The notes beneath the pieces are model-generated. The model saw nothing but the letters and a program-made list of their open reading frames with translations, did not search any database and was not told the DNA's origin. From Patescibacteria group bacterium (lineage in GTDB: Bacteria > Bacteroidota > Ignavibacteria > Kapaibacteriales > Kapaibacteriaceae), in NCBI GenBank assembly GCA_044376225.1, contig JBILLF010000002.1, positions 24,192 through 88,191 of the forward strand: DNA of 64,000 nt, given 5' to 3'. Positions 10,490-63,432 of this stretch are shown piece by piece; within the stretch, counting starts at the first letter, position 1; each line of letters begins with the position of its first letter. The position numbers and the translations under genes are program-made.

Positions 10490-10498
10490 ACGCGTGTC

Positions 10499-13150: not shown

Positions 13151-13153
13151 CCG

Positions 13154-14143: not shown

Positions 14144-14175
14144 AACTGGGGCAGGTGAAAATGATGCGAACCCGG

Positions 14176-17268: not shown

Positions 17269-17278
17269 GTGCTGTTGT

Positions 17279-17857: not shown

Positions 17858-17945
17858 TTCGTTACATTTTTTTGGTATCGCAAGAGGTGTTTTCCATCAT
17901 ATTTGTGCTGACTCTTCCTCTTTTGAACACGATCCATCCACGGTC

Positions 17946-18968: not shown

Positions 18969-18988
18969 TAAAGGTTACGTAGAGTGAT

Positions 18989-19969
18989 CTACCCTGCCAT
19001 CTGAGCACGGACTACGTCGTGCAAACGAATTACGCCCTGTAGAGTGTTTGCTCCCACATCAACGACAGGTAGTACCGAAATAGCGCGCTCTTGCGTCTCC
19101 ATCTTTTGCAATGCTTCATACAGCGAGGCATTACACTCTATGGTAGTGGGCGTCATGGTCATCACCTGGTCAACGCTCATTGACGACAACACCGCACCGC
19201 GTTCTACGAGCCGACGCACATCGCCATCTGTTAGAATTCCACACAGTCTGTTTTCGTCCCCCACCACGCATACTATCCCGAGAGCATGCTTGTCAAGCAT
19301 GTGAACAGCTGCCTCCAGGGTAGCCCCCTTTGAAACGACTGGTAGTTGACCTCCAGAATGCATGTGATCGTCCACGCAAAATCTCAGGAGTGATCCAATC
19401 GAGCCGTTTGGATGCGTTTTCGAAAGGACTTCTAATGTGTCTGGTTTTGCATGGGCAACAGCCATTACCAACAAATCCGCCACAATCATCGCGGCTGTCG
19501 TACTTGCCGTCGGAAGAATATTCATTCTGTCATACTCCTGATCAATAGGAGCAAGAAGTGTGATGTTCGAACGCTTTGAGATCGTTGATCCTCGGCGCGC
19601 AGTTACACAGATAACTGCTCCATTATCTTCAGGCAGAACCTCGATGAGGTTGATCAATTCACGAGTATCACCACTCTTCGAAAACACCACCAGCACAGCC
19701 CCATTGGCTACCGCTCCAAGATCACCATGCATTGCATCAACTGCGTGAATGAATGTAGCTGGAACTCCGAGACTCGTAAGAGATGCGGCAAACTTTCGCG
19801 CAACAAAACCCGACTTCCCGATCCCCGACGTAACGATCGAGGATGCCGCAAGTATCGAATCAACTGCGCGTGCGAACTCCTCGTCGAGGTTCTGTTCGAT
19901 AAGATCAATTGAGCGCCGTTGAAGCCTTAGTGCTTCACGCACATCATTGGTAAGTGGCGACAGATTCAT
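18989..19969 (-). CDS. kdsD: arabinose-5-phosphate isomerase (KpsF/GutQ/KdsD family: SIS domain plus tandem CBS domains)
   Basis: SIS motif (VTSGIGKSGFVARKFAASLTSLGVPATFIH...VFSKSGDTRE) and C-terminal CBS pair. Confidence 0.75.
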   Translation of the reverse strand: MNLSPLTNDVREALRLQRRSIDLIEQNLDEEFARAVDSILAASSIVTSGIGKSGFVARKFAASLTSLGVPATFIHAVDAMHGDLGAVANGAVLVVFSKSGDTRELINLIEVLPEDNGAVICVTARRGSTISKRSNITLLAPIDQEYDRMNILPTASTTAAMIVADLLVMAVAHAKPDTLEVLSKTHPNGSIGSLLRFCVDDHMHSGGQLPVVSKGATLEAAVHMLDKHALGIVCVVGDENRLCGILTDGDVRRLVERGAVLSSMSVDQVMTMTPTTIECNASLYEALQKMETQERAISVLPVVDVGANTLQGVIRLHDVVRAQMAG

Positions 19970-19989
19970 AGCTACGAATATGTGCAGAA

Positions 19990-20027
19990 AATGAAAAGCC
20001 CCCGACGCTGAAGCGCCGAGGGCTTTA
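19990..20027 (-). terminator. rho-independent terminator candidate for the 20050..24765 gene (minus strand)
   Basis: Hairpin AAAAGCCC...GGGCTTT. Read on the minus strand it is followed by TTTTCATTTTCT. Confidence 0.5.
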
Positions 20028-20049
20028 TGATTGCTACGCTGATAGCGGT

Positions 20050-24765: not shown

Positions 24766-24983
24766 GCAAACCTCAAAGAAACTGTGATGAAGTATGTGTT
24801 TTTGGTTTCTCATTCTGTGCTCGACGTAGCTCTGTTCGGATCAATAACAACACGGAAGGTAATTCGTTACATGCGTACGAATACACTCCTCCCGAAAGAG
24901 CATCGGACAATATTCTGATTTTAGGTGAATTAGTCAAACAATTTTTGTCCCCAAATGGCATTCGGTAGAAATTTGGGTGGTCA

Positions 24984-50904: not shown

Positions 50905-52065
50905 TTAGTTGACGCTGTCCCCTTCGCGAAGATTCTCGGAGGGGTGCTGCACAATGTGGTCTCCGACATCGAGTCCAGACGCGACAACCGTCATTAGCGC
51001 GCTCCGTGCACCGAGTGTCACAGAGCGCCGGCGAATGATGCCGGCTTCAACCACCAGCACGTGCCACTGATCAGCATCTCGAAGAAGCGCACCGAGTGGG
51101 ATACAAAGCGCATGTTCTGATCTCTCCGTAATGATGGCCGCTTCGACGCGATATCCGTCACCGAGCCCAGGTGGACGGGCCGCGATATCGGCGATAACAT
51201 TGACGCGCTGTTCCTCGATTCCGAGCGAGCTTACCCGTGTGCGGGCCGACGGTTCAACGCGTCGTACCGTTGCCCGGACGATGGAGTTCCCTCCCCATCC
51301 ATCGAGGTTGACGCTCATGCCTGGACGGATCTTGACGGCATCGATACTGAGTACATCGATCACCACTTCAGCCTGAGACGTGTCGCCTAGTTCTACGATC
51401 GGTGTACCGGCCAGGACGGTGCGTTCGGACTGTTCGTGACACCTTAGCACAACGCCTGATGTTGGTGCACGCACAGAAACACGCTGACCGGGTCGGCCGG
51501 CTAGAATGGCCAGGACGGCTTTGGATTCAAAGCCTATGGCCCGCTCACGCTCGCGCAGGGCATCGGCCTCACGTTGCAGCTGCTCATAGGCATCGCGGGC
51601 ATTCTCGGCCTGCTCGCGCGTAACGGCTCCGGCCAGCTCAAGCCGACTCAGTCGCTCGGTTCTGCGTCTAGCCTGTTCTATCAGGGGGCTCATTGCAGCC
51701 AGGCGCTGATGGATCTCAGCCGATCCGGCACTGATGGAGCCGAAACGAGCCCGGGCTTCGGAACGCTGACGCTCGTCAAGCTCGGGTGGAATGATGGTGC
51801 CGATGATCTGCCCGGCAATGACGCTATCACCGGGTTCGACGCTGAGTCGTTCGAGGACGCCGGTAGCCGGCATGGCCACAACGAACCGTTCGCGAGCGCG
51901 CACAATACCGTCGGCCTCGACCGTGGTCTCAAGATCCTGCTGTCGAACCACTACCTGCTCAACACGAATTGGTCGTGGCAGCAACGCTACGATGATCGCG
52001 GCAATGACGACAACGATCGTGATGATCCAGCCAAGATATCGGGGACGTCGTAGCTTCATCATCAC
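50905..52065 (-). CDS. HlyD/MacA-family periplasmic adaptor (membrane fusion protein)
   Basis: N-terminal TM anchor, long coiled-coil (ENARDAYEQLQREADALRERE) and a beta-barrel/lipoyl-like C-terminal region. It starts at the stop of the ABC permease. Confidence 0.7.
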   Translation of the reverse strand: MMMKLRRPRYLGWIITIVVVIAAIIVALLPRPIRVEQVVVRQQDLETTVEADGIVRARERFVVAMPATGVLERLSVEPGDSVIAGQIIGTIIPPELDERQRSEARARFGSISAGSAEIHQRLAAMSPLIEQARRRTERLSRLELAGAVTREQAENARDAYEQLQREADALRERERAIGFESKAVLAILAGRPGQRVSVRAPTSGVVLRCHEQSERTVLAGTPIVELGDTSQAEVVIDVLSIDAVKIRPGMSVNLDGWGGNSIVRATVRRVEPSARTRVSSLGIEEQRVNVIADIAARPPGLGDGYRVEAAIITERSEHALCIPLGALLRDADQWHVLVVEAGIIRRRSVTLGARSALMTVVASGLDVGDHIVQHPSENLREGDSVN

Positions 52066-54425
52066 TCACGGGATTTGAGAACGGCGATCATGTCAAGTCG
52101 GGCTATCCGACGACGGATAAACCCGCCGGTTACGAGCGCAACGGCGAGGATCAGTGCGGCACTGATGCCGAGGTTGCGCAGACTGATGGCAAAGGGAAAT
52201 CGAAACAGATCTGTAGCAATCAGCGAAGGCATCCACATCGACCACATGATGCCCCCTAGCATGCCGATCGGCAAAGCAACGAGCGTGATCACGAATTGTT
52301 CGCCCAATAGGATCACAGTAACGTCACGATTCGAGAAGCCAAGCACGCGCAGGCTTGCAAGTTCATTGCCCCGCTCGCTAAGTGCAATGCGTGCGTTGTT
52401 AAACACCACGCCGAAGGCGATGAGCGAGGCAAAGAACACAATGTAGAAATTTGAAATGTCCATGAATTGCAGATAGCTCTCATCGAAGCTACGCATGGCC
52501 CGCTCGCGCATCACCACACCTGACATTGACGGGAGCCTCTTGACGGCGCGGTAAAACTCCCCCATCAGTGCCGGATCGATCTGCAGGTATGCTCCACTGA
52601 TGCTCCCTTGCTCGCGCAGCATTGCACGCAGCACACCTGGTGAGACATAGACCTGCACGCCCATCATGTCGTCGATCAGTGACGTGACAGCCACCGTGAA
52701 TGATCGACGTTCTTCGTCGATCTGACGCAGCCCGATTGTGTCACCAATGCCAAACCCCATCATTTTGGCCATGTACGCCGAACAGGCCACACCGTAGGTT
52801 GGGACCGGCTGAGGCCACCCCTTCATCGACGTCACGCGATGGAGCTCCGGGTACTCAACACCGGCCACTATGGCGGTGCGCTTGGTGGTGGAGCCGACGA
52901 TCACATCCACAGGGATCGCACGAAAGGGTTCGACAGACATTACTCCAGGTAAAGCCGCCAGATCATGCACTGCCCGGTGCGAGCGCGGCGTCATGAATGT
53001 TACCATGGCATCCTCACGAGCAACGCGATGGAACTGTACCGTCAGAATTGTCTCAAACATTTCCATGAAGTAGCGTCCAAGAACAAGCAACGACATTGCC
53101 AGGGCGATCGCCAGTAGGCTCACCACCGCACGCACCGGCCGACGCAGCACGTTGCGAACGATCATCGACGTTAGGGGGCTGAAACGGCGTGTAAGACCGC
53201 TGCGTTCGAGCAGCCCGCCGCGATACGACCGCGGTGCTTCGGGTCGCATGGCCTCTGCCGGTGGCAACCGCACGATGGCTCGAACCGCCGCTATCGCGCC
53301 AAGTGAAGCCGCCAGAAGACTCAGCAGAATAGCGCCAAGGATCACGAGAACAGGTACGTCAAACTCCAGCACCGGTAGCCGGTAGAAGTCTAGGTACATC
53401 CTGACAAGCCTGACACCGATGAAAATGCCACCGGCCAGGCCCAGCACGGTGCCACCGGCTACGGCCACCACGGCAAAGCCCACGTAGTGTAGCGAGATAC
53501 GTCCATTGCCGTACCCAAATGCCTTGAGAATGGCGATCGTCGAACGCTGCGTAGTAACGAAACGTAGCAGCGAGATATTCAGCAGAAAGATCGCCACACC
53601 GAGAAAGATCGCCGGAACGATAAGGGCCGTGAGCGACAGCTGTCGGATCTCATCACTGAGGAACTTGTGCGACTGCTGATCGTCTCGCGCAATGGCACCG
53701 GTACTTCCATACGGACGAAGCAGCACATCAAGCCGGTCAATGATTCCTGTCTTTGACGCGCCCGGTACCAGGTCGAATGAAGCGCTGTTCCAGGCACCCG
53801 ACAAGTCATAGAGCGTACCAAGAGCCCCCTGCTCCATCCACATCACCGCAAATCGCTTGTTGTCGATCATCATCGAGCCCGGAACAAGCTCCAACACCCA
53901 TTCCGGAGAGAGTGCCGTGGCAACGATGCGAAGGGGCTTCCAGCGCCCATTGATCACGGCATTGACCGTGTCACCCTCATGAAATCCATTGGCCAGTGCA
54001 AAGGCGTAAGAGACGATCACTTCGTCATCAGTGTGGGGCGTGAGCCAGCGACCGGAGCGCAGGCTCAGCCGATTGACAGGGGGCTGACCTGATCCAGGGA
54101 TTCCGGTGATGATGCCCGTTGCCGGCTCTGCCAGACCAGGGATATCGATCACCACATTGGCCACAACACGAAGGTCGACGTTCGTTACGCCGCTGATCTG
54201 AGCCAGACGCGAGCGCAGCTCAAGTGGCGCCCGGCGCACCTGCGCCCAGACGTCACCAAAGTTCGTTTCGTCGTAGTAGGTGCGCTGCGACAGCACCAGC
54301 GAAGCATGCGTGCTTTGGAAGGCAACGTAATTGGCAATACCGGCGGCGATCACCAGAATGATGGCGATCATCTGGCCGCGCATGTGACGGACCTCGCGCA
54401 GGAGCTTGATGGTCAAAATCGACAC
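52062..54425 (-). CDS. ABC transporter permease with duplicated FtsX domains (YbbP/MacB-like, about 790-820 aa)
   Basis: Two FtsX-type 4-TM modules separated by large periplasmic domains. Start uncertain (GTG about 54425 or ATG 54383). It is 3' of the ATPase gene. Confidence 0.7.
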   Translation of the reverse strand: MSILTIKLLREVRHMRGQMIAIILVIAAGIANYVAFQSTHASLVLSQRTYYDETNFGDVWAQVRRAPLELRSRLAQISGVTNVDLRVVANVVIDIPGLAEPATGIITGIPGSGQPPVNRLSLRSGRWLTPHTDDEVIVSYAFALANGFHEGDTVNAVINGRWKPLRIVATALSPEWVLELVPGSMMIDNKRFAVMWMEQGALGTLYDLSGAWNSASFDLVPGASKTGIIDRLDVLLRPYGSTGAIARDDQQSHKFLSDEIRQLSLTALIVPAIFLGVAIFLLNISLLRFVTTQRSTIAILKAFGYGNGRISLHYVGFAVVAVAGGTVLGLAGGIFIGVRLVRMYLDFYRLPVLEFDVPVLVILGAILLSLLAASLGAIAAVRAIVRLPPAEAMRPEAPRSYRGGLLERSGLTRRFSPLTSMIVRNVLRRPVRAVVSLLAIALAMSLLVLGRYFMEMFETILTVQFHRVAREDAMVTFMTPRSHRAVHDLAALPGVMSVEPFRAIPVDVIVGSTTKRTAIVAGVEYPELHRVTSMKGWPQPVPTYGVACSAYMAKMMGFGIGDTIGLRQIDEERRSFTVAVTSLIDDMMGVQVYVSPGVLRAMLREQGSISGAYLQIDPALMGEFYRAVKRLPSMSGVVMRERAMRSFDESYLQFMDISNFYIVFFASLIAFGVVFNNARIALSERGNELASLRVLGFSNRDVTVILLGEQFVITLVALPIGMLGGIMWSMWMPSLIATDLFRFPFAISLRNLGISAALILAVALVTGGFIRRRIARLDMIAVLKSRE

Positions 54426-54429
54426 AGCA

Positions 54430-55155
54430 TCACCATGAGAGTTCACGGGGCTGCTTGCGCTGCGTCGGGGAATACTCCTGCACGATCGTACCACTGCGCA
54501 TACGCAGCACCCGGTCGGCCATGTCCGCAATACTAGCGTTGTGTGTGATCAGCGCTACCGTCGCGTCGAGTTCACGATGTACCAGGTCGATCACCTCCAG
54601 CACGATGATGCCTGTCTCGAAGTCCAATGCGCCCGTGGGCTCGTCACAGAGAAGAACGTCTGGACGTTTGGCAATGGCACGGGCGATGGCAACCCGCTGC
54701 TGCTCGCCCCCTGACATCTGAGACGGGAAGTGATGCATGCGGTCGGCCAAGCCCACGAGGTCAAGTGCCGTTCGTGCATCCATCGGCTCTTCAACGAGAT
54801 CGGTCACCAGCTGCACGTTCTCAAGTGCCGTCAGACTTGGGATGATGTTGTAGAACTGGAACACGAAGCCCACCGAGTGACGTCGGAACCTGGTCAGCGC
54901 TGCCTCATCAGCATGAGTCAGATCCGTCTCCCGATACCGAACGCTGCCGGATGTGGGCACATCGAGCCCACCGAGGATGTTCAGCAAGGTGGACTTACCA
55001 CTTCCCGAAGCACCGAGGATCACCAGGAGCTCGGACTCATGGATTGTCAGCGACACATCGCTAAGGGCTACAACCTCTAGCTCGCCCATCGAATAGGATT
55101 TCGTGACGTGGCTGACGTCAAAAAGGACAGGGCGGCCGGAGTGATCCTGATGCAT
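54430..55155 (-). CDS. ABC transporter ATP-binding protein (MacB/LolD/YbbA-like)
   Basis: Walker [10 protein letters not shown], signature [14 protein letters not shown] and Walker [12 protein letters not shown]. Confidence 0.9.
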
Positions 55156-55182: not shown

Positions 55183-55962
55183 CTACATCGAGTGAATCTG
55201 CACGTCACCATGATGGTCGATGGCCACATAGGTCGATGGCTTATCGGTCCAGCATCCGGAGTTGACGTACGTGACATCATCGATTTGCTTGATCCCGGGC
55301 ATGTGCGTGTGACCGCAATGAACCACCTGAGCCTGATGCCTGCGGCGTCCATGTCCAGCTGCATCGTGTGCAATCTTGTCGCTCAGGCGCAGCCACTTCT
55401 TGCTGGTGCGCTTTACCCAGCGGCTCACGCGGTGGTGCGGATCGATGCGCTGCAGCAGCAGATACAGCCATGAGGCGATGGCCGTGATGGTCACATGTTT
55501 GGTGATCCATCGGTCAAACTGGTGTCCATGAATGGCCAGATGACGCTTGCCCGCAACCGTAAAGACGATCTCTTCATGCACCGGTACTCCCAGAAGGTGC
55601 GTCAGGATCTCGGCCACACCACCGTCATGATTGCCCACCACCCAGACCACGTCTACGCCCCGACGTGGATTTGACAGACGTCGCAACAGCGACAGAACCT
55701 TCCAGTCATCCTTGGTAAGACGCCTGAAGTTGAGATCGTCAAAGACATCGCCGTTGAGGATCAGGCGTTTGTAGATGTGCGTCTTGAGCATCATCACCAG
55801 CGCCTTTGAGCGGGCAACATCCGAACCCAGGTGCAGGTCGGAGATGATGATGGTGTCCACGTCAAGAGGCACGGCAAGATGAAGGTCAATCCGCTCGCGC
55901 TCACTGACCTCGACGTCTACGATGATATCATCATCGATGTCATAGTCGGCGACGGAACGCAT
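55183..55962 (-). CDS. calcineurin-like metallophosphoesterase (LpxH-like UDP-2,3-diacylglucosamine diphosphatase family)
   Basis: IISDLHLG, GDVFD and GNHD are metallophosphoesterase motifs I-III. Start uncertain (55962 or 55998). Confidence 0.6.
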   Translation of the reverse strand: MRSVADYDIDDDIIVDVEVSERERIDLHLAVPLDVDTIIISDLHLGSDVARSKALVMMLKTHIYKRLILNGDVFDDLNFRRLTKDDWKVLSLLRRLSNPRRGVDVVWVVGNHDGGVAEILTHLLGVPVHEEIVFTVAGKRHLAIHGHQFDRWITKHVTITAIASWLYLLLQRIDPHHRVSRWVKRTSKKWLRLSDKIAHDAAGHGRRRHQAQVVHCGHTHMPGIKQIDDVTYVNSGCWTDKPSTYVAIDHHGDVQIHSM

Positions 55963-56704
55963 GGATGTGCTGTCGGAAATATCCCGTGGGGAAGTCATCA
56001 TGGAGTCCGTATCGAGTAGGCTTTTCCGTTTCTGGTAAATAGGCAGTAGCAAACAGCCAGTCCCAGATGGCAAGCTTGGTCGAGAAGTTGCGATTATGCG
56101 AACGGGGATCGTCGGCATGGTGCCAGCGGTGCATCTCCGGACCGTTGATCACGCGTTGCAGACGTCCCGTGCGCACGTCAATATTCGAATGGATGTACAT
56201 GCCCCAAATGGCATCAATGGCCCCCTTTATCACGGCTACCTCCGGTGAGGCCAGCAGCACGATCGGGAGGAACTCTACCGTCTGGTTGATGAGGATCTCA
56301 AGACTGTGCGAGCGTGATCCGCTAAGCCAGTCCACATCGGTGGTTGAATGATGAGCCTCGTGAATTCGCCACAGCAGTGCATTCGAGTGTTGCCAGCGAT
56401 GGAACCAGTAGATGTAAAAGTCGTGCACCAGAAGAAACACCACCATCTGCGCCGCCAGTGGCTGCGAGCGCAGAAACACAAGGCGGCTCAGGCCGCTCTG
56501 CTGGTCAATCCAGCCGATGAGGGCAAAGATCACCAGACCCAGCACGTAGCTCTGGGCGATGGCGTACAGGCCCAGATCGGTCATGAACCCACTCCTGAAA
56601 AGGGGCTGACCCGACGTGTAGGGAAACAGCCGTTCAAGGACGACCAGCAGGCCCCCTGCTAGGATCACCATCGTGGTGCAGACTATTGCCAGCGACAGCT
56701 CCAT
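55940..56704 (-). CDS. fatty acid hydroxylase superfamily integral-membrane di-iron enzyme (sterol-desaturase-like)
   Basis: Multiple TM segments plus three histidine boxes (HRWQH, HEAHH, HRWHH). Confidence 0.7.
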   Translation of the reverse strand: MELSLAIVCTTMVILAGGLLVVLERLFPYTSGQPLFRSGFMTDLGLYAIAQSYVLGLVIFALIGWIDQQSGLSRLVFLRSQPLAAQMVVFLLVHDFYIYWFHRWQHSNALLWRIHEAHHSTTDVDWLSGSRSHSLEILINQTVEFLPIVLLASPEVAVIKGAIDAIWGMYIHSNIDVRTGRLQRVINGPEMHRWHHADDPRSHNRNFSTKLAIWDWLFATAYLPETEKPTRYGLHDDFPTGYFRQHIHAFRRRL

Positions 56705-56707
56705 ACC

Positions 56708-57607
56708 TTAGGCTTCTCCTCGGACCGATGACGAAACACGACGAAGCTTCGACCGCACGCCCAGCTCACTGTCATACAGGCGCTTGACACCGTCGCCCAG
56801 TGAGCGCTCGATCTCGCGGATATCGCGAATCATGCGCTCGAGTCCGGCAATCTCTACGCTGGCGGCTTGGTCAGTTCCCCACATAGCCCGGTCGAGAGTG
56901 ATATGTCGCTCAACGAACCGCGCACCGAGGGCAACGGCGGCATACGTCGTAGCAAGCCCCACCTCGTGCCCGCTATAGCCGATGATGCGGTTCGGGTAGC
57001 GAGCCTGTAGGGTATTGATCATCCGGAGGTTGAGTTCATCCGAGGCACAGGGATAGGCCGAAGTTGCGTGGGCGATCAGCAGGTTCGCATCGGTCAGTGA
57101 TTCGACAGCCTGATCGATTTCCTCCGTCGTGGACATGCCGGTGGAGATCATCAGCGGCTTGCCTGTTGATGCCATGACACGAAGTAGTCCAAGGTCAGTT
57201 AGTGATGCCGATGCTGCCTTGTAAAAAGGCACATCAAAGTTTGCCTCCATAAAGGCCAGCGCCTCCTCATCCCAGCATGACACAGTCCAGTCGATACCAA
57301 GATCCCGGCACAGTGCGTCAATAAGGCGATAGTCCTCTTCGTCGAATTCCACCTTGTAGCGATAGTCGATGTAGGTCATGCGTCCCCACGGCGTGTCACG
57401 CTCGATCATCCATTGATCACGCGGCACACACAGCTCCGGGGTACGCTTCTGAAACTTCACACAAGACGCGCCGACGCGTGCCGCGCCGCGAATCATCTCA
57501 CGGGCGATATCAAGAGATCCGTTATGGTTGATGCCAATCTCGGCGATGACATAGACTGGCTGATCTGCGCCAATGGCTGGCTTGGTCGTCGATGGTTGAA
57601 TGCTCAT
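56708..57607 (-). CDS. NeuB-family PEP-condensing synthase (sialic/ulosonic acid synthase-like), short form lacking a C-terminal SAF domain
   Basis: VYVIAEIGINHNGSLDIAREMIRGAARVGASCVKFQ is the NeuB TIM-barrel N-terminal signature. At 299 aa it lacks the C-terminal antifreeze-like domain. Confidence 0.65.
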   Translation of the reverse strand: MSIQPSTTKPAIGADQPVYVIAEIGINHNGSLDIAREMIRGAARVGASCVKFQKRTPELCVPRDQWMIERDTPWGRMTYIDYRYKVEFDEEDYRLIDALCRDLGIDWTVSCWDEEALAFMEANFDVPFYKAASASLTDLGLLRVMASTGKPLMISTGMSTTEEIDQAVESLTDANLLIAHATSAYPCASDELNLRMINTLQARYPNRIIGYSGHEVGLATTYAAVALGARFVERHITLDRAMWGTDQAASVEIAGLERMIRDIREIERSLGDGVKRLYDSELGVRSKLRRVSSSVRGEA

Positions 57608-57684
57608 GCGAAGCTCCCTGAAAGATGATTGGTTCCCATCATGAATGCTGTAGAGTCGTCAGGTCAATTGCCGGTTGGCGCAGG

Positions 57685-58494
57685 TCACCAGGCCGTCCAG
57701 CCGCCGTCGACAAGAAGATTGTGTCCGGTCATGTAGGCCGAGGCATCGCTGGCAAGAAACACGAGCGCACCGCGATAGTCCGTTGGGTCAGCCATGCGTC
57801 CAAGCGGCGTGCGCTCGGAATAGAGTTTCTGGAAATGCTCGTTCTGATTGTTGGCCACACCGCCCGGTGAGAGCGTATTGGCACGTACACCTGACCCAGC
57901 CCAGTATGTAGCCAGAAACTTGGTCAGCATCACTACCGCCCCCTTCGAGGCTGGATAGGCAGCACTCTTGTAGAACGACTGTGAGCCATCGGGACGCTGG
58001 TAGAGCCGCTGATCTGGGGCCACAACGCCGTAGGTCGAGGCGATGTTGATGATCGAGCCTCTTCTGGTCTCGGCCATATGCGTGCCGATGATCTGGCTTG
58101 TCAGGAACACTCCGGTGACGTTGACATCAAGCACCTTGCGAAACAGCGTCAGCGGATAGCTCTCAAAGGCCGACGGTGCGCCCCCGGAAAGGGGTGCTTC
58201 GACCATGTCATTCATGGCGGCATTATTGACCAGAATATCAATGTGTCCATGTTCGCGCAGGACCATCTCGCGTAGATCGACAATTCCCTCGGCATCGGTA
58301 ACATCGAGTGCAACACCCATGTGGTGAGCACCCAGTTCCTGCGCCACGTCGCGAGCCGCATGACCATCGAGGTCACAGGCCACAACCGTTGCACCGGCAG
58401 CGGCGAGAGCCACGCAGTGCTGACGTCCCAATAGACCCGCTGCACCAGTGACCACCGCTACGCGGTCTTCAAGCGAAAAGATGTTTTGCATCAC
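57685..58494 (-). CDS. short-chain dehydrogenase/reductase (SDR)
   Basis: VVTGAAGLLG (TGxxxGxG), NNAA, and catalytic YxxxK (YPASK). Confidence 0.8.
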   Translation of the reverse strand: MMQNIFSLEDRVAVVTGAAGLLGRQHCVALAAAGATVVACDLDGHAARDVAQELGAHHMGVALDVTDAEGIVDLREMVLREHGHIDILVNNAAMNDMVEAPLSGGAPSAFESYPLTLFRKVLDVNVTGVFLTSQIIGTHMAETRRGSIINIASTYGVVAPDQRLYQRPDGSQSFYKSAAYPASKGAVVMLTKFLATYWAGSGVRANTLSPGGVANNQNEHFQKLYSERTPLGRMADPTDYRGALVFLASDASAYMTGHNLLVDGGWTAW

Positions 58495-59822
58495 TTGTGC
58501 TCCATCGCAACACGCGGCTTAGTGTTGAAGGCACCCGTCTTGCGGAATACCGGCTCAACGCATCGGCCGCGCAGTGCCAATGGCAGTGTTCCCATGCGGA
58601 TGTGTTCATGTAGCATCGGCAATACGTCGGCATAGACATCAAGCGTGAACTCGATGTCTGCAAGCGTGTGTGCCGCACTCAGCGTGTGAAAGCCATTCCA
58701 TAGAATTCCGTACCGGAGCAGTTCCTGCTGCACAAACGAACGCATCATCAGCGGGTCCGCAGACGCGTCCGAAAAGGCCATCATTGTGCGGGCCCCAAGC
58801 CCCTTGACCGTGGCGTAACTCATGTCGTTGGAGGCAAGGATCAAGCGAATACCCTCGCGGAGTTCATCACCCAATAGCTCCATTCGCTGCAGAACCTCAC
58901 CATCGAGCAGGCGGTGTAACGTGGCCTTGGCAGCGGCAAGTGATAGTGCTTCGCCACCGAAGGTCGTAAAGAAGAATACATCCTTCTCGAGCAGACGCAT
59001 GATCTCGGCCTTGCCCGTCAGCACTGATAGCGGCATGCCATTGGCAACGGCCTTTGAGAAGCAGGCAAGGTCAGCCTGAACGCCAAATCGCATCTGCGCA
59101 CCGCCCGGAGAGATCCGAAAGCCAGTCCACATTTCGTCGAAGATCAAGACGATACCACGCTGATTGCAGAGTTCGCGCAGCTCCTGAAGGAAGTCCTCCT
59201 TCGGTTCGTCAAAGACCATCGGCTCAAGGATGATTGCCGCTGTATCAGAATCGAGCGCATCATAGACGCTCTGCATGTCGTTATAGCTGAAGGTGTAGGT
59301 CAGGTCTCGCACAGCCTGTGGGATTCCCATGGCGCGGTCCGTGGTGGCGATGTACCAGTCGTGCCAGCCATGATACCCGCAGCACAGCACCGTAGAACGT
59401 CCTGTATAGGCACGAGCCAATCGCACCGCAGCCGATGTGACATCGCATCCTGTCTTGGAAAAGCGCACATGCTCGGCATTGGGAACAATACCATGGATAA
59501 GCTCGGCAACTTCTACTTCCAGTGGGTGCATCAGCGAAAACGTTATGCCGTCATGAAGCTGCTGCTCGATGGCCCGATTGACGCCGGCATCGGCATAGCC
59601 AAGAATGAGCGGACCGATCGCCATGGCGTAATCGAGGTAACGGTTATCGTCAACATCCCAGAGGTAAGCCCCCTTTCCGCGTTGGGCAAAGACAGGCGCT
59701 ACGCCGCGCACGTGCTGACCAGGTCCTTTGGCGAGGGTCTGCGTCTGTGCCGGGATGAGTCGCTCGGCTCGCTTAAGAAGCTCTTGGGATCGCTGGATCG
59801 GTGGATATGTTGGCTCACGCAT
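58491..59822 (-). CDS. class III PLP aminotransferase (glutamate-1-semialdehyde aminomutase-like)
   Basis: GSA-AT-like fold with the PLP lysine in the FSKAVANGMP context. The length (about 440 aa) fits. It overlaps the flanking genes by 4-8 nt. Confidence 0.7.
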   Translation of the reverse strand: MREPTYPPIQRSQELLKRAERLIPAQTQTLAKGPGQHVRGVAPVFAQRGKGAYLWDVDDNRYLDYAMAIGPLILGYADAGVNRAIEQQLHDGITFSLMHPLEVEVAELIHGIVPNAEHVRFSKTGCDVTSAAVRLARAYTGRSTVLCCGYHGWHDWYIATTDRAMGIPQAVRDLTYTFSYNDMQSVYDALDSDTAAIILEPMVFDEPKEDFLQELRELCNQRGIVLIFDEMWTGFRISPGGAQMRFGVQADLACFSKAVANGMPLSVLTGKAEIMRLLEKDVFFFTTFGGEALSLAAAKATLHRLLDGEVLQRMELLGDELREGIRLILASNDMSYATVKGLGARTMMAFSDASADPLMMRSFVQQELLRYGILWNGFHTLSAAHTLADIEFTLDVYADVLPMLHEHIRMGTLPLALRGRCVEPVFRKTGAFNTKPRVAMEHK

Positions 59823-60783
59823 GGGTAACCTCGCTTTGTGGTGAAAGGGGCTGGCTGACGCCATGAACGATATCGGCAAAGCGCTCGCGGATGCGATGAG
59901 CCAGTGCCGGGGCGCTCATGCGCTCATTCTCAAGCACGTCGTTAAGACGTCCAGGCCGGAACCACGTCGGAAAGCCAATAGTCAGCACCGGCGCAGCAAT
60001 ACGATTCGCCATGAGCGTCTCGGCAACGATGCTGGCAAGGCCCCCTGTGAGAAAATGATCTTCGACGGTAACAACGAGCTCGCTTGTTCGGGCGGCGTCG
60101 AGGATTGCTTCAACGTCAACGGGCTTGAGCGTGCGCATATTCACTACGCGCACATGCATGTCTTCCCTACGGAGCTCGTCGGCCGCTTCGATACACAGCC
60201 TTGTCATGAAGCCATACGTAAGGATCGTTACGTTCGGGCGGTGCAGCGAAGCACCACGAACAGCCACTGCCCTACCGGGCTCGAATGGCACTCTGTCGAT
60301 CGGCAGCTCCGGAGCATTGAGATAGCGGACGTACCAGGGACGACGGGATTCGAGCAGCACGCGCATACCATCGACAAACTCCTGTTCGTCGCAGGGACAG
60401 AACACACCTACGTTCGGCAGGCCTCGCATGATCGATACGTCCTCAATAGCCTGGTGAGTGGGACCATTACCGTCACTGAGAATGCCTGCAACCATGCCCA
60501 CCATGATCACCGGGGCGTTGGCAATAGCTACATCATCGCGGATGAATTCAAAGGCTCTCATCGTGATGAAGGCCGCCAGCGCATGCGTCACCACGACCCG
60601 ACCGCGCACGGCCATTCCGGCTGCCATGCCGATCATTGTTTGCTCAGCAATACCGACGTCTATAAATCGGTCGCCCAGCATCGGCGGTACAGTTCGCATA
60701 TGTCCACGGTTTTCGGCCGTGATCACCACGAGGCGCTCATCGCGCGATGCTGTATCTAGGAGCAGAGTTTCGTAAGCGTTCAT
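59815..60783 (-). CDS. transketolase, C-terminal (pyrimidine-binding) subunit of a split transketolase
   Basis: GIAEQTMIGMAAGMA...GPTHQ are motifs of the transketolase Pyr and C-terminal domains. It is a separate ORF immediately after the N-terminal subunit. Confidence 0.75.
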   Translation of the reverse strand: MNAYETLLLDTASRDERLVVITAENRGHMRTVPPMLGDRFIDVGIAEQTMIGMAAGMAVRGRVVVTHALAAFITMRAFEFIRDDVAIANAPVIMVGMVAGILSDGNGPTHQAIEDVSIMRGLPNVGVFCPCDEQEFVDGMRVLLESRRPWYVRYLNAPELPIDRVPFEPGRAVAVRGASLHRPNVTILTYGFMTRLCIEAADELRREDMHVRVVNMRTLKPVDVEAILDAARTSELVVTVEDHFLTGGLASIVAETLMANRIAAPVLTIGFPTWFRPGRLNDVLENERMSAPALAHRIRERFADIVHGVSQPLSPQSEVTHA

Positions 60784-61637
60784 CGTACGATCAAGGTTTC
60801 TGAGGTGAGTGTTGCACGCGCATGGCCATTGAGCTCTTCGATGAGAGCCTGTGTCTCTTCGGCACTGAAGTTGCAGAACCAGCGGTCGGCTCTCTCTTCG
60901 ATACTTGGCAGCCCCTTACCGCGACGTGTATCGGCAATGACCACGGTGGGACTTCCCGAGTTCAGTTGCAACGAGCTGAAGCACGCGTCAAGCGAATTCA
61001 TATCATGGCCATTGGCGTAAACAGCATTCCAGCCGAAGGCCCGAAACTTCTCGGGAAGGGGCTCAAGCGGCACCAGCTCTTCGGTGCGCACATTTGCCTG
61101 GAAGTGATTACGATCTATCACGGCGATGAGATTGTCCAGACTCAGCGCCGAGGCTACCAGACAGGCCTCCCAGACGCTTCCCTCGTTGAGTTCACCATCG
61201 CCCATAATGACCACAACGCGTGTCGATAGGCCCTTCATCCGAGCATCAAGGGCCATTCCCATACCGACGCTGAGAAGATGACCCAGCGAGCCGGAGTGAA
61301 ACTCCACCCCCGAAACATTGCGGTTTGGATGCCAATAGAGATCGTCGTTCACCGAAAGGTGGTGCTTAAGCCGTTCTTTGCTGATGAAGCCTCGCTCGGC
61401 CAGCACACCATAGAGAGCCGGCACGTCGTGCCCCTTGGAGAGTAGCAGAATGTCGCGGTCTTCGGCGTGCACTGTCAGCGGCGAGATGTTCAGGAAGCGC
61501 CAGTACAGGTATACGAGCAGATCCGCGCACGACAGAGACGCTCCAATGAAGCAGCCGCCGTCGGTGGACATCCGCACGATGTGCTCGCGCACACGAAGGG
61601 CGGCGCTTTGGAGTTCTTCGACCTCGGCAGACGTCAT
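60780..61637 (-). CDS. transketolase, N-terminal (thiamine-diphosphate-binding) subunit
   Basis: SKGHDVPALYGVL...GSLGHLLSVGMGMAL...VIMGDGELNEGSVWEA is the ThDP-binding motif. Confidence 0.75.
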   Translation of the reverse strand: MTSAEVEELQSAALRVREHIVRMSTDGGCFIGASLSCADLLVYLYWRFLNISPLTVHAEDRDILLLSKGHDVPALYGVLAERGFISKERLKHHLSVNDDLYWHPNRNVSGVEFHSGSLGHLLSVGMGMALDARMKGLSTRVVVIMGDGELNEGSVWEACLVASALSLDNLIAVIDRNHFQANVRTEELVPLEPLPEKFRAFGWNAVYANGHDMNSLDACFSSLQLNSGSPTVVIADTRRGKGLPSIEERADRWFCNFSAEETQALIEELNGHARATLTSETLIVR

Positions 61638-62425
61638 GAAGCGATCCTCGGTGGTGATTGCAAATAGCTTTGATACCAGCTCTGTCCACGCAACTGCTGA
61701 TTGATGAGGTCGATCTCGGGATGCGCGTCAAGAAACGCCAGAACGTCCTCGCACCGAAAGCGAGGGTTCGCCCAGTAAAGCGCGTCATAAACGGCCCGGA
61801 TCAGAACGTAATCTTCGGGATGATCGATGGTCCAGCGGTGGCGTGCCTCGAGCAACTGACCATCTGGACGCTCCACATTCCGCATGGTGATGTATGGGTT
61901 ATTCTCCCACATCCATGGAGTCGTATGCTCGCGTTCATGCGGTCTACTGGCCGTTGCCCAGGCCCGGTGAAGAGCAAGCATCGTCATCACTTCGACGTCA
62001 TTCCCATCAGGCCATGTGCCGGGGTGCAGATTACTGGCGTAGTCCACCCACGGATACTCCAGCAGGAAGGACTCAATGACCATGTCGATCACGGCCGGGT
62101 CGATGAGTGGACAGTCAGTCGGGATCTTGACAACCACATCGGCATCAACCATCTGAGCTGCCCAGAAATGCCGGTCAAGCAGATCCGTAGGATGCCCGCG
62201 ATAAACACGGTATCCGGCAATGTGGCATAGGTCGGCGATCTCATCGTCTTGAGCAAGCGTGGTGGTGGCCACGATCACATGCTTGGCGTAGCGAGCCATT
62301 GTGACGCGCTCAAGAAAACGAAGAAGAAGGGGCTCTCCGGCAAGTGGCAGCAGGACTTTGCCGGAGAGACGGGTTGACCCCGTGCGAGCCTGGCAGATAA
62401 TGGCCACCTTGGGTTGATGATTCAC
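61634..62425 (-). CDS. CMP-sugar-type cytidylyltransferase (CTP_transf_3; acylneuraminate/Kdo cytidylyltransferase or SpsF/PseF-like)
   Basis: KVAIICQARTGSTRLSGKVLLPLAGEPLL is the N-terminal nucleotide-binding signature of the SpsF/NeuA/KdsB family. Confidence 0.65.
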   Translation of the reverse strand: MNHQPKVAIICQARTGSTRLSGKVLLPLAGEPLLLRFLERVTMARYAKHVIVATTTLAQDDEIADLCHIAGYRVYRGHPTDLLDRHFWAAQMVDADVVVKIPTDCPLIDPAVIDMVIESFLLEYPWVDYASNLHPGTWPDGNDVEVMTMLALHRAWATASRPHEREHTTPWMWENNPYITMRNVERPDGQLLEARHRWTIDHPEDYVLIRAVYDALYWANPRFRCEDVLAFLDAHPEIDLINQQLRGQSWYQSYLQSPPRIAS

Positions 62426-63432
62426 ACGGCCTCCCGCAGATGATAGGAACGGCGCTCTGGAAGCATCAGACCGCGCTCATGGAGAACTTCTGTGCAGACC
62501 TCGGCGATACTCGCTGCCGAACGTCCGCCATTCTGAATCGGACACATACGGCGCAGCTCCTCCATCGGGAAGTCGCTATAGACTTCCTTGCCTAGGGCAA
62601 TGCCCACGTACACACATGAAGAGAACTTGGTAATGAGTGTCTGGCAATGTGCGATCATCGGATTGATGTCGCGGCCGTGATATACCAGCGCATTAGGAGC
62701 CCAGCGGTCGATCTCGCGTCGTGCACGGTCAACGACCTCGTTCGGATGAAGCTTGAAGATCAGCTGACGTCCATCGGCAATGCGCAGGGCATTGAGTATC
62801 GTTTGACGACGGTCCTCGAGCTTGAATGTCTCGCGCGCGTCGCTGGTGGCAACGAGCACGAAGTCGCTGTGATCGAACGGGACTTCGCGATAGCGCTCAC
62901 AGTTATCGAAGTTTGGGATGCCCGTAACACGCAGTTTGCGACCATCAGCCCCTTTCCGTCGGAAGTGGTCCGCGTAGCCTTCGGATGCCACGCACATGTA
63001 TCGATAGGCATTTGAGAGTCCGAAGGTCGACGTCGAGGCAAGGTATCGTGGCAGACCCAGCTTCATCACCGCACGGTACATGAAGTTCTCGGGATCGGTC
63101 ATGCCCTCCTGCACCAGCACGATCGGACGGTTGCGGATGTTCTGCTGCAACATCAGATCGCTGCAGGTCACCACGAGGTCATAATCGAGCTCGCTGCCAA
63201 ACTCATCGATGCGGCACAGATTAGCGCGCAGCACCTGGCGTGCGCGTTCACGGTGGCGGTTGCCCACAATGGTCCACTCTAGCAGACCGGAGCGTGCAGC
63301 CGCCTCCAAAAGTCCGTCGGCATAGTGCGGGGCAAAGCGGCACTCGTGTTCCGACAGATGACGGGCGATCTCGACCATCATCGTGGTTTGATTTACCGAG
63401 CCGCAGATAAAGAGAATGTTACACCGTTGCAT
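62422..63432 (-). CDS. Capsule_synth (KpsS/KpsC/LpsZ)-like protein, a putative CMP-ulosonic-acid glycosyltransferase; first gene of the operon
   Basis: About 336 aa with a Rossmann-like N-terminus (ILFICGS). The segment LIFKLHPNEV resembles the conserved HP motif of KpsS/KpsC beta-Kdo transferases. Assignment by motif recollection only. Confidence 0.35.
   Translation of the reverse strand: MQRCNILFICGSVNQTTMMVEIARHLSEHECRFAPHYADGLLEAAARSGLLEWTIVGNRHRERARQVLRANLCRIDEFGSELDYDLVVTCSDLMLQQNIRNRPIVLVQEGMTDPENFMYRAVMKLGLPRYLASTSTFGLSNAYRYMCVASEGYADHFRRKGADGRKLRVTGIPNFDNCERYREVPFDHSDFVLVATSDARETFKLEDRRQTILNALRIADGRQLIFKLHPNEVVDRARREIDRWAPNALVYHGRDINPMIAHCQTLITKFSSCVYVGIALGKEVYSDFPMEELRRMCPIQNGGRSAASIAEVCTEVLHERGLMLPERRSYHLREAV

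Follow-up and report, generated by a model that had tools for sequence, protein, structure and literature searches.

A conserved operon with a SAF-less NeuB-family synthase and a His-less transketolase-fold enzyme, possibly for a tailored Kdn-type sugar

The window analysed here, a 64,000-nucleotide stretch of contig JBILLF010000002.1, raises the question of what could be made by a gene cluster that combines a split transketolase pair, a class-III aminotransferase and a NeuB-family synthase. A sequence-only reading had proposed that the transketolase builds an aldehyde, which is aminated and then condensed with phosphoenolpyruvate (PEP) to give a CMP-activated amino 3-deoxy-2-ulosonic acid. 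No paper on the cassette was found in the literature, and the operon has apparently not been studied before. The explanation tentatively favoured here is that it makes a CMP-activated, tailored Kdn-type 3-deoxy-non-2-ulosonic acid for an envelope glycoconjugate, probably a membrane lipid.

Operon extent and conservation

Domain matches placed the six gene products named in the sequence-only reading (CTP_transf_3 protein, both transketolase subunits, class-III aminotransferase, SDR and NeuB-family synthase) on the minus strand at 56708-62425, just where they had been read. The unit itself proved larger, with 12 genes forming one tightly packed operon from 63432 to 50905 that also encodes a GT-B protein, a membrane enzyme of the fatty-acid-hydroxylase family, a metallophosphoesterase and a MacAB-type exporter. 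Neighbouring genes of 56708-62425 are mostly separated by a few bases or overlap by 4 bases, which suggests translational coupling within the cassette. The aminotransferase gene was likewise recovered, but with a different start, most likely 59822 according to the gene call on the identical JGI contig. The metallophosphoesterase reading frame shares 179 bases with the gene before it, so that its true start is probably internal. The KpsF/KdsD-like gene noted earlier at 18989-19969 is real (one SIS and two CBS domains), but at a distance of 37 kb it falls outside the operon. The features are:

62422..63432, minus strand: GT-B-fold protein, 336 aa, first gene of the operon; no Pfam family
61634..62425, minus strand: CTP_transf_3 cytidylyltransferase (SpsF/6OEW type), 263 aa; PF02348, E 1.9e-19
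60780..61637, minus strand: PP-domain subunit of a ThDP enzyme, transketolase fold, His-less variant; Transketolase_N PF00456, E 6.9e-28
59815..60783, minus strand: Pyr plus C-terminal domain subunit of the ThDP enzyme; Transket_pyr PF02779, E 1.7e-29; Transketolase_C PF02780, E 2.6e-24
58491..59822 (reading frame to 59879), minus strand: class-III, GSA-aminomutase-like PLP aminotransferase, 443 aa; Aminotran_3 PF00202, E 4.5e-50
57685..58494, minus strand: classical SDR; adh_short_C2, E 3.5e-45
56708..57607, minus strand: SAF-less NeuB-family PEP-condensing synthase, 299 aa; PF03102, E 1.7e-70
55940..56704, minus strand: integral-membrane di-iron hydroxylase, FA_hydroxylase family; PF04116, E 5.6e-30
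55183..56118, minus strand: metallophosphoesterase; Metallophos_2, E 1.1e-11
50905..55155, minus strand: MacAB-type exporter, three genes (ABC_tran, FtsX and HlyD domains)
54430-55155, minus strand: exporter ABC ATPase; ABC_tran, with LolD/DevA/MacB-like NCBIfam matches
52062-54530, minus strand: exporter FtsX/MacB permease; FtsX domain
50905-52065, minus strand: exporter HlyD-family adaptor; HlyD domain

The gene order GT-B / CTP / TK-N / TK-C / AT3 / SDR / (HAD) / NeuB / FA-hydroxylase is kept well beyond the window. The same genes recur in the same order in about 20 of 80 fetched loci from several phyla, which rules out a chance grouping. At least five bacterial phyla share the block, and the order of its eight-gene core is common to Ignavibacteriota, Bacteroidota, Myxococcota, Chloroflexota and a Methylomagnum ishizawai plasmid. 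The earlier view that these genes form one biosynthetic unit is thereby borne out, and the transketolase pair, syntenic with its neighbours across phyla, is no stray pentose-phosphate gene of the tktA/tktB kind.

Several lineages depart from this arrangement. Nine Ignavibacteriaceae clusters contain no transketolase at all; since clusters do split, their ThDP enzyme may be encoded elsewhere in the genome. In a Lewinellaceae variant, a methyltransferase, a GFO oxidoreductase and a PhyH enzyme replace the aminotransferase and the transketolase, with SDR, HAD, NeuB, CTP and GT-B genes retained, an LPG_synthase_TM protein present and no aminotransferase nearby. Chlorobi, among them Chlorobaculum thiosulfatiphilum DSM 249, have HAD and NeuB alone at the corresponding site, AT3 and SDR being absent near NeuB, and in Thermochlorobacter a PGI/PMI-type isomerase gene lies directly upstream of NeuB. 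No alignment position in NeuB sets clusters with the transketolase apart from those that lack it or lack the aminotransferase, and AT3, SDR, CTP and GT-B proteins likewise show no group-specific positions. The tailoring genes thus appear modular around a fixed core. Only the two closest relatives share the link between the cassette and the MacAB exporter.

The synthase and its probable substrate

Alignment to the family HMM, set beforehand as the test, identified the synthase as a clear NeuB-family member: the PF03102 match covers residues 38-275 of 299, and the domain search found no SAF match in the protein. SAF-less enzymes of about 300 aa are not new, as the characterised Kdn-9-P synthase of Prymnesium parvum and PDB entry 6ncs are of this type. 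The score of the window synthase falls short of the equivalog cut-offs for NeuB and PseI. The pathways to legionaminic and pseudaminic acid (NeuB/LegI/PseI) resemble the one proposed below in that a NeuB-fold enzyme condenses PEP, the sugar is activated with CMP and the product is a nonulosonate with amino substituents. Their synthases, however, have a SAF domain and take sugars that are not phosphorylated, and DegT-family enzymes install the amino groups on UDP- or GDP-sugars before condensation.

The window protein shares 65-67% identity with the NeuB from a Streptomyces operon composed of DUF6716, a CTP_transf_3-KdsC fusion and NeuB, where the only neighbours are the cytidylyltransferase-phosphatase fusion and a putative glycosyltransferase, with neither TK nor AT3. 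That operon matches the description of the published Streptomyces operon SCO4879-4881, and Kdn is present in Streptomyces walls. Identity to the Prymnesium enzyme is 34%, and the catalytic residues of NeuB are invariant in the alignment of relatives. A gene for a KdsC-family HAD phosphatase, whose best model is Kdn-9-P phosphatase (144-158 bits), precedes NeuB in 31 of 43 loci. Together, the Streptomyces identity and this upstream gene suggest that the synthase probably works as Kdn-9-P synthases do, joining PEP to a common hexose-6-phosphate and not to a precursor built by the transketolase. Eleven NeuB positions, several of them adjoining catalytic residues, nevertheless split Actinobacteria from all other groups, so the non-actinobacterial enzymes could take another, possibly aminated, hexose phosphate.

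The window itself has no HAD phosphatase gene. A metallophosphoesterase gene is found in none of the 31 loci with the HAD phosphatase and in 5 of the 12 without it, window included (Fisher p = 0.0008), and this mutual exclusivity makes it a candidate to stand in for the sugar-phosphate phosphatase that the window lacks. The closest known system is the CMP-Kdn pathway, represented by Bacteroides thetaiotaomicron BT1713-1715, the Prymnesium synthase and CMP-Kdn synthetase, and SCO4879-4881. It shares with the cassette and its relatives the SAF-less synthase, the KdsC-type phosphatase, a cytidylyltransferase of the CTP_transf_3 family and a putative transferase. Extra in the window cassette are the SDR, the class-III aminotransferase, the His-less ThDP enzyme and the membrane hydroxylase. 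Its cytidylyltransferase also differs in not being NeuA/KdsB-like over its full length: KdsB models match just the N-terminal 120 residues, under their cut-offs, and the full-length match is PDB 6oew, a "cytidylyltransferase" (E 2.4e-38). It presumably makes the CMP-ulosonic acid. The GT-B protein is a candidate CMP-sugar transferase; its best structural matches are 2-epimerases and not transferases, a 2-epimerase-like role being the alternative, and comparing its profile with that of the Streptomyces DUF6716 protein gave no significant match.

The ThDP enzyme and the tailoring enzymes

The best PDB matches of the ThDP enzyme are split transketolases, 6yak for the PP subunit (E 6e-53) and 6yaj for the Pyr/C-terminal subunit (E 3.4e-43). 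Cofactor features are retained, namely the GDG...N ThDP motif in the former and the cofactor Glu (IAEQ) in the latter, together with the equivalent of yeast Arg528. Phe30 and Phe254 take the place of the donor-site histidines (H30 and H263 in yeast) in the window and in all 19 orthologues, the phosphate-binding yeast His469 position holds Val, Phe, Ile or Trp, the stereo-determining yeast Asp477 is Asn, the yeast Arg359 position is missing because the Pyr subunit begins there, and TAENR stands in place of DADLSKS in all 20 orthologues. The loss of residues for sugar phosphates and ketol donor makes classical two-carbon glycolaldehyde transfer doubtful for the predicted enzyme. Specialised split transketolases (C. 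hydrogenoformans 6yak/6yaj, a Streptomyces LysW cluster, a Paenibacillus SDR-TK fusion in a CDP-hexose cluster) share the two-subunit architecture and likewise have aminotransferase or SDR neighbours, in clusters that tailor sugars or amino acids, but they keep both donor-site histidines. Among 50%-identity representatives, the His-less state is confined to the nearest ones.

The aminotransferase is best matched by the GSA-aminomutase-like model NF004856 (364 bits against a cut-off of 486), ahead of TIGR00713 hemL (245 against 527). Its PDB matches are GSAMs (about 1e-53) and also the FumI aminopentol aminotransferase and GenB C-6' aminotransferases, relatives that use aldehydes or ketones of sugars and polyols. 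No gene accompanies NeuB more often than the SDR (34 of 43 loci). Its best NCBIfam models, gluconate 5-dehydrogenase and KduD, both score under cut-off, and its nearest solved relatives (galactitol dehydrogenase 2wdz, gluconate 5-dehydrogenase 1vl8, KduD 4z9y) oxidise acyclic polyols and sugar acids.

Proposed pathway and alternatives

Orthology and gene neighbours point to a first step in which the SAF-less synthase would join PEP to a hexose 6-phosphate, most likely mannose 6-phosphate, giving a 9-phosphorylated ulosonate. This would be dephosphorylated by the KdsC-type HAD enzyme in relatives and by the candidate metallophosphoesterase here. The polyol-dehydrogenase-like SDR could then turn a hydroxyl of the acyclic side chain into a carbonyl, which the GSA-type aminotransferase would convert to an amine, and the His-less enzyme may perform a non-canonical ThDP step on the sugar acid or a co-substrate. 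The SpsF-type cytidylyltransferase would form the CMP-sugar, the GT-B protein may transfer it, the membrane hydroxylase would work on the lipid part and, in the lineage of the window, the MacAB-type pump would export the product. This order of steps is tentative. The same logic operates in Shewanella Kdo8N (8-amino-3,8-dideoxy-Kdo), where the side chain of a finished ulosonic acid is oxidised by KdnB and transaminated by KdnA before or around CMP activation. The enzymes differ: in Shewanella the alcohol dehydrogenase is metal-dependent and the aminotransferase is DegT-like, of fold type I, where the cassette has an SDR and a GSA-like class-III enzyme. That sugar also has eight carbons rather than nine, and no ThDP enzyme is known to take part in its formation. 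The sugar made here is probably an amino-modified, nine-carbon acidic one, resembling Kdn or sialic acid, for the cell envelope.

The earlier proposal of a CMP-activated amino 3-deoxy-2-ulosonic acid thus holds as a reasonable product class, while its transketolase-built precursor is not supported. That scheme follows the logic of AHBA aminoDAHP formation (oxidoreductase, aminotransferase, phosphatase, split transketolase Rif15A/B and PEP-condensing synthase); every enzyme type needed is present and co-conserved, and a split transketolase beside a DegT aminotransferase occurs naturally in the Streptomyces LysW/ArgB/ArgC/NRPS cluster. It is nonetheless very improbable, given the Streptomyces identity, the HAD linkage, the lost donor and sugar-phosphate residues, the nine transketolase-free clusters with their undistinguished NeuB sequences, the Streptomyces and Chlorobi orthologues lacking TK and AT3 neighbours, and the fact that NeuB needs aldoses while transketolases yield ketoses. 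That the pair is the ordinary split pentose-phosphate transketolase of the host, lying beside unrelated sugar genes, is suggested by its naming in Pfam, NCBIfam and public annotations, and is effectively refuted: it misses all transketolase equivalog cut-offs by a factor of more than 2, holds its place in the cassette across phyla, has other residues at four to six of the canonical positions for catalysis or substrate binding in every orthologue (19-20 compared), and collapses at 50% identity to a single full-length representative, separate from the split transketolases that contain the histidines.

Amination might instead precede condensation, as in the kanosamine NtdABC pathway, where the phosphatase also acts late: SDR and aminotransferase would make an amino-hexose 6-phosphate, NeuB an amino-nonulosonate 9-phosphate (for example 7-amino), and the ThDP enzyme would be accessory. 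The eleven positions separating the plain-Kdn Streptomyces enzymes from other lineages fit this reading, as do the HAD and NeuB genes of Chlorobaculum thiosulfatiphilum, an aminoglycosphingolipid having been reported from a Chlorobium strain; this lipid is said to contain neuraminic acid. It is still unlikely, as the relatives of the SDR take acyclic polyols and sugar acids as substrates and not cyclic sugar phosphates, the Lewinellaceae variant keeps the other enzymes with no aminotransferase nearby, and Chlorobi lack AT3 and SDR near NeuB. Less probable again is that the ThDP enzyme decarboxylates a 2-oxo acid (the ulosonate or another), the aminotransferase turning the aldehyde into a primary amine and the aminopolyol being N-acylated to an ornithine-lipid-like aminolipid that the hydroxylase modifies, with CMP-Kdn added or made in parallel. 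With the ketol-cleaving histidines gone, decarboxylation would be the simplest way to load ThDP, and GSA-type aminotransferases favour aldehydes; the OlsE match of the hydroxylase, described below, also fits. In Methylomagnum, moreover, LplT overlaps the end of the HAD gene and, after a 0.3-kb gap, genes follow for a GNAT N-acyltransferase (OlsB-like by annotation) and a lysophospholipid acyltransferase. Against this, OlsB/OlsA/LplT-like genes occur neither in the window nor in the other loci compared, the cassette has no acyl-carrier or acyl-activating genes, AT3 is unchanged in transketolase-free clusters, and the cytidylyltransferase and GT-B protein need an intact ulosonate.

The hydroxylase directly follows NeuB in 26 of 43 loci and has four hydrophobic segments and three His boxes. 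Among named families, OlsE, a hydroxylase of ornithine lipids, matches it best, at 121 bits against a cut-off of 475, and the genes do not indicate acylation of the amine as in the OlsB/OlsA/OlsE system. For the favoured Kdn-type product, circumstantial indications make a membrane lipid the probable destination; those counted were the FA_hydroxylase membrane protein, the Methylomagnum acyltransferases and LplT, LPG_synthase_TM and the MacAB exporter.

Gene organization and distribution of the cassette

The six minus-strand genes at 56708-62425 are those described in the sequence-only reading, as borne out by domain profile matches, and they are part of a unit of 12 genes extending from 63432 to 50905, most of which overlap or lie a few bases apart.

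Cassette genes in the window
First gene of the unit, minus strand: 336-aa protein without a Pfam family
Within 56708-62425, minus strand: CTP_transf_3 cytidylyltransferase (CTP), 263 aa
Within 56708-62425, minus strand: Transketolase_N subunit (TK-N), 285 aa
Within 56708-62425, minus strand: Transket_pyr plus Transketolase_C subunit (TK-C), 322 aa
58491-59879 (longest ORF), minus strand: Aminotran_3 enzyme (AT3), best models GSA-aminomutase-like, under cut-off
Within 56708-62425, minus strand: classical SDR, 269 aa
56708-57607, minus strand: NeuB-family protein (PF03102, E 1.7e-70), 299 aa, without a SAF domain

On the 3' side of NeuB the unit continues with an FA_hydroxylase-family membrane protein, a metallophosphoesterase (55183-56118), an ABC ATPase, an FtsX/MacB permease and an HlyD adaptor. 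Its upstream neighbour is a cytochrome c peroxidase gene, the end of which adjoins the unit, and its downstream neighbour is secA on the opposite strand. The longest ORF of AT3 (58491-59879) extends 65 bases into the gene before it, and that of the metallophosphoesterase 179 bases; their real starts are probably internal, and a gene call on an identical contig places that of AT3 at 59822. A scan for promoters and terminators returned nothing exceeding shuffled expectation. By annotation, the nearest relatives come from Kapabacteria, Melioribacter and Bacteroidota MAGs.

Elsewhere in the window, the KpsF/KdsD-like gene mentioned in the same reading does exist at 18989-19969, with SIS plus CBS domains, and shows no linkage to the unit. 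An AtuA-family (acyclic terpene utilisation) gene, unrelated to the cassette, adjoins a DUF2279 lipoprotein gene and a GT2 gene at 15910-17304 (minus strand). Three large surface or secreted proteins are encoded at 43010-45457, 20050-24813 and 6224-10489, all on the minus strand; they comprise a protein with Ig-like repeats that also matches, faintly and below cut-off, a type IX secretion C-terminal sorting domain, a 1587-aa protein with an FlgD-Ig domain and a 1421-aa S8 subtilase with FG-GAP repeats.

When the NeuB protein was scanned against one genome per species, 80 loci were obtained, onto which the window proteins were mapped and whose ORFs were all clustered. The cassette order, GT-B (the first gene) / CTP / TK-N / TK-C / AT3 / SDR / (HAD) / NeuB / FA-hydroxylase, was found again in Ignavibacteriota, Bacteroidota (Saprospiraceae, Chitinophagales), Myxococcota, Chloroflexota and a 3.2-Mb metagenome genome, as well as in a cultured methanotroph, Methylomagnum ishizawai, where plasmid pRS11DPr1 bears it. 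Among the 43 non-actinobacterial loci, SDR was counted in 34, the HAD phosphatase gene (HAD) in 31, AT3 in 30, CTP and the first gene (GT-B) in 27 each, the hydroxylase in 26 and the transketolase (TK) genes in 17-19, these counts being lower bounds because many loci are cut by contig ends. Conservation of this order together with the TK genes across phyla speaks against the pair being the generic transketolase of the pentose phosphate pathway.

Departures from this layout are of several kinds. The TK-N to TK-C distance is 3 kb in two Ignavibacteria, and the cassette is found in two parts in two Bacteroidota-like genomes. In the split cassette on two large contigs (L092 and L093, 5300-10900), TK-C, AT3, SDR and NeuB are located elsewhere, while a second KdsB-sized CTP_transf_3 gene, a 4HBT thioesterase, DUF2147, GT-B, CTP and TK-N are retained together. 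Loci devoid of TK genes may have the pair encoded elsewhere in the genome. A Polyangiaceae MAG cassette (L022) misses the split pair and carries, just after the hydroxylase gene (11639-13672), a fused transketolase-like protein of ~650 aa in which the histidines are retained. In a Lewinellaceae variant, SDR, HAD, NeuB, GT-B and CTP are kept without AT3, TK and hydroxylase, whose place is taken by genes for methyltransferase, GFO oxidoreductase, PhyH dioxygenase and LPG_synthase_TM proteins. The Chlorobi present only HAD and NeuB at this site.

Two relative loci
Lewinellaceae MAG L017, 7379-15592: methyltransferase / SDR / HAD / NeuB / GT-B / GFO oxidoreductase / CTP_transf_3 / PhyH dioxygenase / LPG_synthase_TM
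Methylomagnum ishizawai plasmid NZ_AP019784.1 (L086; 274 kb), 10131-20672: full cassette

Genes for GT2, GT4 and GT39 proteins flank the plasmid-borne cassette.

The synthase and the transketolase-fold pair

The synthase is a bona fide member of the NeuB family, matching PF03102 over its full profile (positions 1-241 of 241) with 237.6 bits (cut-off 22.1), and it ends at residue 299 without a SAF match, as had been claimed. The mapped metal-binding histidines and PEP/catalytic residues, E25, K53, Q55, K129, S132, S154, S213, H215, E234, H236 and D247 (N. meningitidis numbering), are invariant in the window protein and 80 aligned members. The protein falls below the cut-offs of the N-acetylneuraminate synthase and pseudaminate synthase equivalogs TIGR03569 (228.5 vs 399.65 bits) and TIGR03586 (184.1 vs 340.25), and solved relatives, PseI and NeuB included, are ~30% identical, one of them (6ncs, 290 aa) being likewise SAF-less. 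SAF is also lacking from the Kdn-9-P synthase of Prymnesium parvum, an enzyme characterised biochemically, which shares 34% identity over 281 aa (E 7e-44), only slightly above the ~30% to PseI/NeuB.

Much closer, at 65-67% identity, are Streptomyces proteins whose operon comprises three genes, the other two coding for a putative glycosyltransferase (DUF6716) and for a fusion of CTP_transf_3 with a KdsC phosphatase. In work from 2014, Ostash and colleagues reportedly found that an operon of the SCO4879-4881 type makes the Streptomyces Kdn polymer. In a Thermochlorobacter MAG (L016, 8766-9824), a gene for a bifunctional PGI/PMI-type isomerase, consistent with mannose 6-phosphate supply, lies directly upstream of the SAF-less NeuB. 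A Kdn polymer is present in Streptomyces walls, and the published description of SCO4879-4881 matches the three-gene operon. The Streptomyces identity, the HAD neighbour, the likeness to the P. parvum enzyme and the Thermochlorobacter isomerase all point to a phosphosugar-using synthase, predicted to be of the Kdn-9-phosphate-synthase type.

The nearest solved relative of the ThDP pair is the split transketolase of Carboxydothermus hydrogenoformans. Residues were mapped through alignments to this enzyme, the human enzyme, E. coli DXS (for the C-terminal subunit) and 19-20 cassette orthologues. The ThDP motif GDGELNEG...DRN of the N subunit and the cofactor-activating Glu (in IAEQ) of the C subunit are kept in all orthologues, from which a catalytic ThDP enzyme would be expected. 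The substrate-binding positions have been rebuilt; among Arg359, Ser386, His469, Asp477 and Arg528 of the yeast enzyme, the sole survivor is the Arg528 equivalent.

Transketolase active-site positions and their equivalents in the cassette pair
Yeast His30 / human His37 (donor site): Phe ("GGC-F-x-GASLSC"), Phe30 in the window, Phe in all 19 orthologues
Yeast His263 / human His258 (donor site): Phe or Tyr ("RWF") in 19 orthologues, Phe254 in the window
Yeast His469 / human His416 (phosphate binding): Val, Phe, Ile or Trp
Yeast Asp477 / human Asp424 (stereo-determining): Asn ("NGPTHQ")
Yeast Arg359: absent, the protein beginning at that position
Yeast Ser386 region: "TAENR"

Yeast transketolase mutants indicate that the two histidines bind the donor C1 hydroxyl and aid C2-C3 cleavage. 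The loss of both makes a classical glycolaldehyde transfer between sugar phosphates unlikely; candidate reactions, listed as possibilities, are decarboxylative loading from a 2-oxo acid, transfer of a hydroxyl-less C2 unit, or chemistry on the ulosonate itself. The best NCBIfam model (NF004559, cut-off 488) gives the two subunits 223 and 172 bits. Among 1.84 billion representatives searched, the TK family of the cassette consisted of one full-length 50%-identity cluster plus fragments, and the histidines were missing in just a handful of its nearest relatives, all others keeping both. They are also kept, unlike in the cassette pair, by the Streptomyces split transketolase located beside a DegT aminotransferase (LysW/ArgB/ArgC/NRPS gene cluster) and by an SDR-fused split transketolase of Paenibacillus. 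The latter fusion, of an SDR with the TK N-terminal subunit, adjoins the C-terminal subunit on a Paenibacillus cellulosilyticus plasmid (L088, 7882-10712), within an rfbF/rfbG CDP-hexose cluster that looks like a ThDP-dependent branched-chain sugar pathway.

Order of the steps and the phosphatase

The sequence-only reading had a transketolase-built aldehyde being aminated and then condensed with PEP by the synthase. Its product class, an amino-bearing ulosonic acid, remains plausible, whereas the mechanism found only partial support. A TK-built NeuB substrate is disfavoured by the Lewinellaceae variant, by the Chlorobi with HAD and NeuB only, and by the lack of group-specific positions: at >=80% within-group conservation, none in NeuB separated the TK-containing, TK-less and AT3-lacking clusters. 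Likewise, no position in NeuB, AT3, SDR, CTP or GT-B separated TK-containing from TK-less clusters at a 90% threshold; with regard to TK presence, the same outcome is expected whether the pair is accessory or encoded elsewhere. It looks as if a constant core makes and activates a Kdn-type acid, to which interchangeable tailoring sets are added.

The enzymes of the tailoring set are informative about when amination would take place. AT3 is a class-III fold member (PF00202 above cut-off, with the PLP lysine aligned) that stays under the HemL equivalog cut-offs (TIGR00713, 244.6 vs 527.3 bits; NF004856, 363.7 vs 486), and its relatives include enzymes for sugar 6'-aldehydes and for an aminopolyol. 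The closest solved relatives of the SDR oxidise acyclic polyols or sugar acids (galactitol, gluconate C5, KDG C5, sorbitol). In Shewanella, Kdo8N is synthesised by oxidation and transamination of the finished ulosonate. These substrates and the Kdo8N analogy favour a route in which SDR and AT3 would oxidise and then transaminate the ulosonate side chain after condensation. The hexose phosphate may instead be aminated before condensation, in support of which 11 NeuB positions, several adjoining catalytic residues, set Actinobacteria apart from all other groups.

In most loci the synthase gene is accompanied by one for a candidate phosphatase. A HAD gene of ~175 aa directly precedes NeuB in 31 of the 43 non-actinobacterial loci (for example L003, L009 and L011); it lies above the KdsC subfamily cut-off TIGR01670, and the model that it matches best, at 144-158 bits, is NF058599 for Kdn-9-P phosphatase (cut-off 180). 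No such gene was found in the window by tblastn. The metallophosphoesterase is restricted to five loci, the window included, that are without the HAD gene (Fisher p = 0.0008), and is likely a non-orthologous replacement of it.

For activation, the cytidylyltransferase matches PF02348 with 70.8 bits (cut-off 22.6), and its N-terminal nucleotide-binding motif QARTGSTRLSGK aligns with the N-termini of 6oew and KdsB, KdsB models giving <=61 bits (cut-offs 155-281) over residues 4-121 only. The 336-aa protein of the first gene has a GT-B fold and carries invariant QEG (108-110) and HP (229-230), a loose fit to the D/E-D/E-G and HP motifs of bacterial sialyl/Kdo-type GT-B transferases. Profile-profile comparison with the Streptomyces DUF6716 protein was not significant (probability 0.35%, E 0.17), and the family profile gave nothing beyond a marginal TagF-like match among PDB sequences. 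Its best structural matches are 2-epimerases. A role as a NeuC-like hydrolysing epimerase supplying the hexose, which the structure would allow, was dropped because the phosphosugar route needs no such step.

Destination of the product and significance

Several hints suggest a lipid acceptor. The hydroxylase (PF04116, 104.9 bits, cut-off 31) is an integral-membrane di-iron enzyme with four hydrophobic segments and the His boxes HRWQH, HEAHH and HRWHH; its best named relative is OlsE, the equivalog cut-off being missed (121 vs 475 bits). In Methylomagnum, LplT overlaps the end of the HAD gene, with GNAT N-acyltransferase and lysophospholipid acyltransferase genes 0.3 kb downstream. These LplT, GNAT and PlsC-like genes were not found in the window or any other locus searched, so that an ornithine-lipid-like reading is not taken as general. 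An LPG_synthase_TM protein ends the Lewinellaceae variant cluster, and a MacAB-type exporter ends the window operon.

The HAD-NeuB pair is also present in Chlorobaculum thiosulfatiphilum DSM 249, reportedly the strain from which a Chlorobium aminoglycosphingolipid, said to contain neuraminic acid, was obtained. The lipid has been reported from a strain of Chlorobium limicola f. thiosulfatophilum. The "neuraminic acid" reported in this green-sulfur-bacterial lipid, hitherto unexplained, could stem from the HAD/NeuB core of DSM 249.

A full-text literature search found no description of the cassette, with side matches only to Kdn pathways, the Streptomyces operon and the Chlorobium lipid. The cassette fits best among the CMP-ulosonic acid (Kdn-type) pathways, as a variant that carries a tailoring module yet to be characterised and a ThDP enzyme of unusual kind. 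The fuller picture, in which an undescribed amino-substituted Kdn-type sugar, its skeleton maybe altered by a new reaction of the His-pair-less ThDP enzyme, is attached to a membrane lipid via its CMP ester, is put forward tentatively and with low confidence.

Nonulosonic acids shape the recognition of bacterial surfaces and are increasingly found in environmental biofilms, the known routes being the simple Kdn route and those in which NeuB, LegI or PseI is combined with DegT-type chemistry. With the cassette, a third and widespread tailoring logic would join these, made of an SDR, a transaminase of the GSA type and a ThDP enzyme; the carriers include several phyla dominant in sediments and activated sludge, and the cassette may account for orphan amino-glycolipids. 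The rebuilt active site of the transketolase-fold enzyme is also of interest for ThDP enzymology and biocatalysis. Cassette members are publicly labelled "transketolase", "N-acetylneuraminate synthase" or "hypothetical protein", and the first two labels, together with "glutamate-1-semialdehyde aminomutase", are probably all wrong in detail here; the Methylomagnum record labels the cytidylyltransferase "glycosyltransferase family protein". Methylomagnum ishizawai RS11D-Pr, being a cultured carrier (plasmid pRS11DPr1), offers a tractable experimental model.
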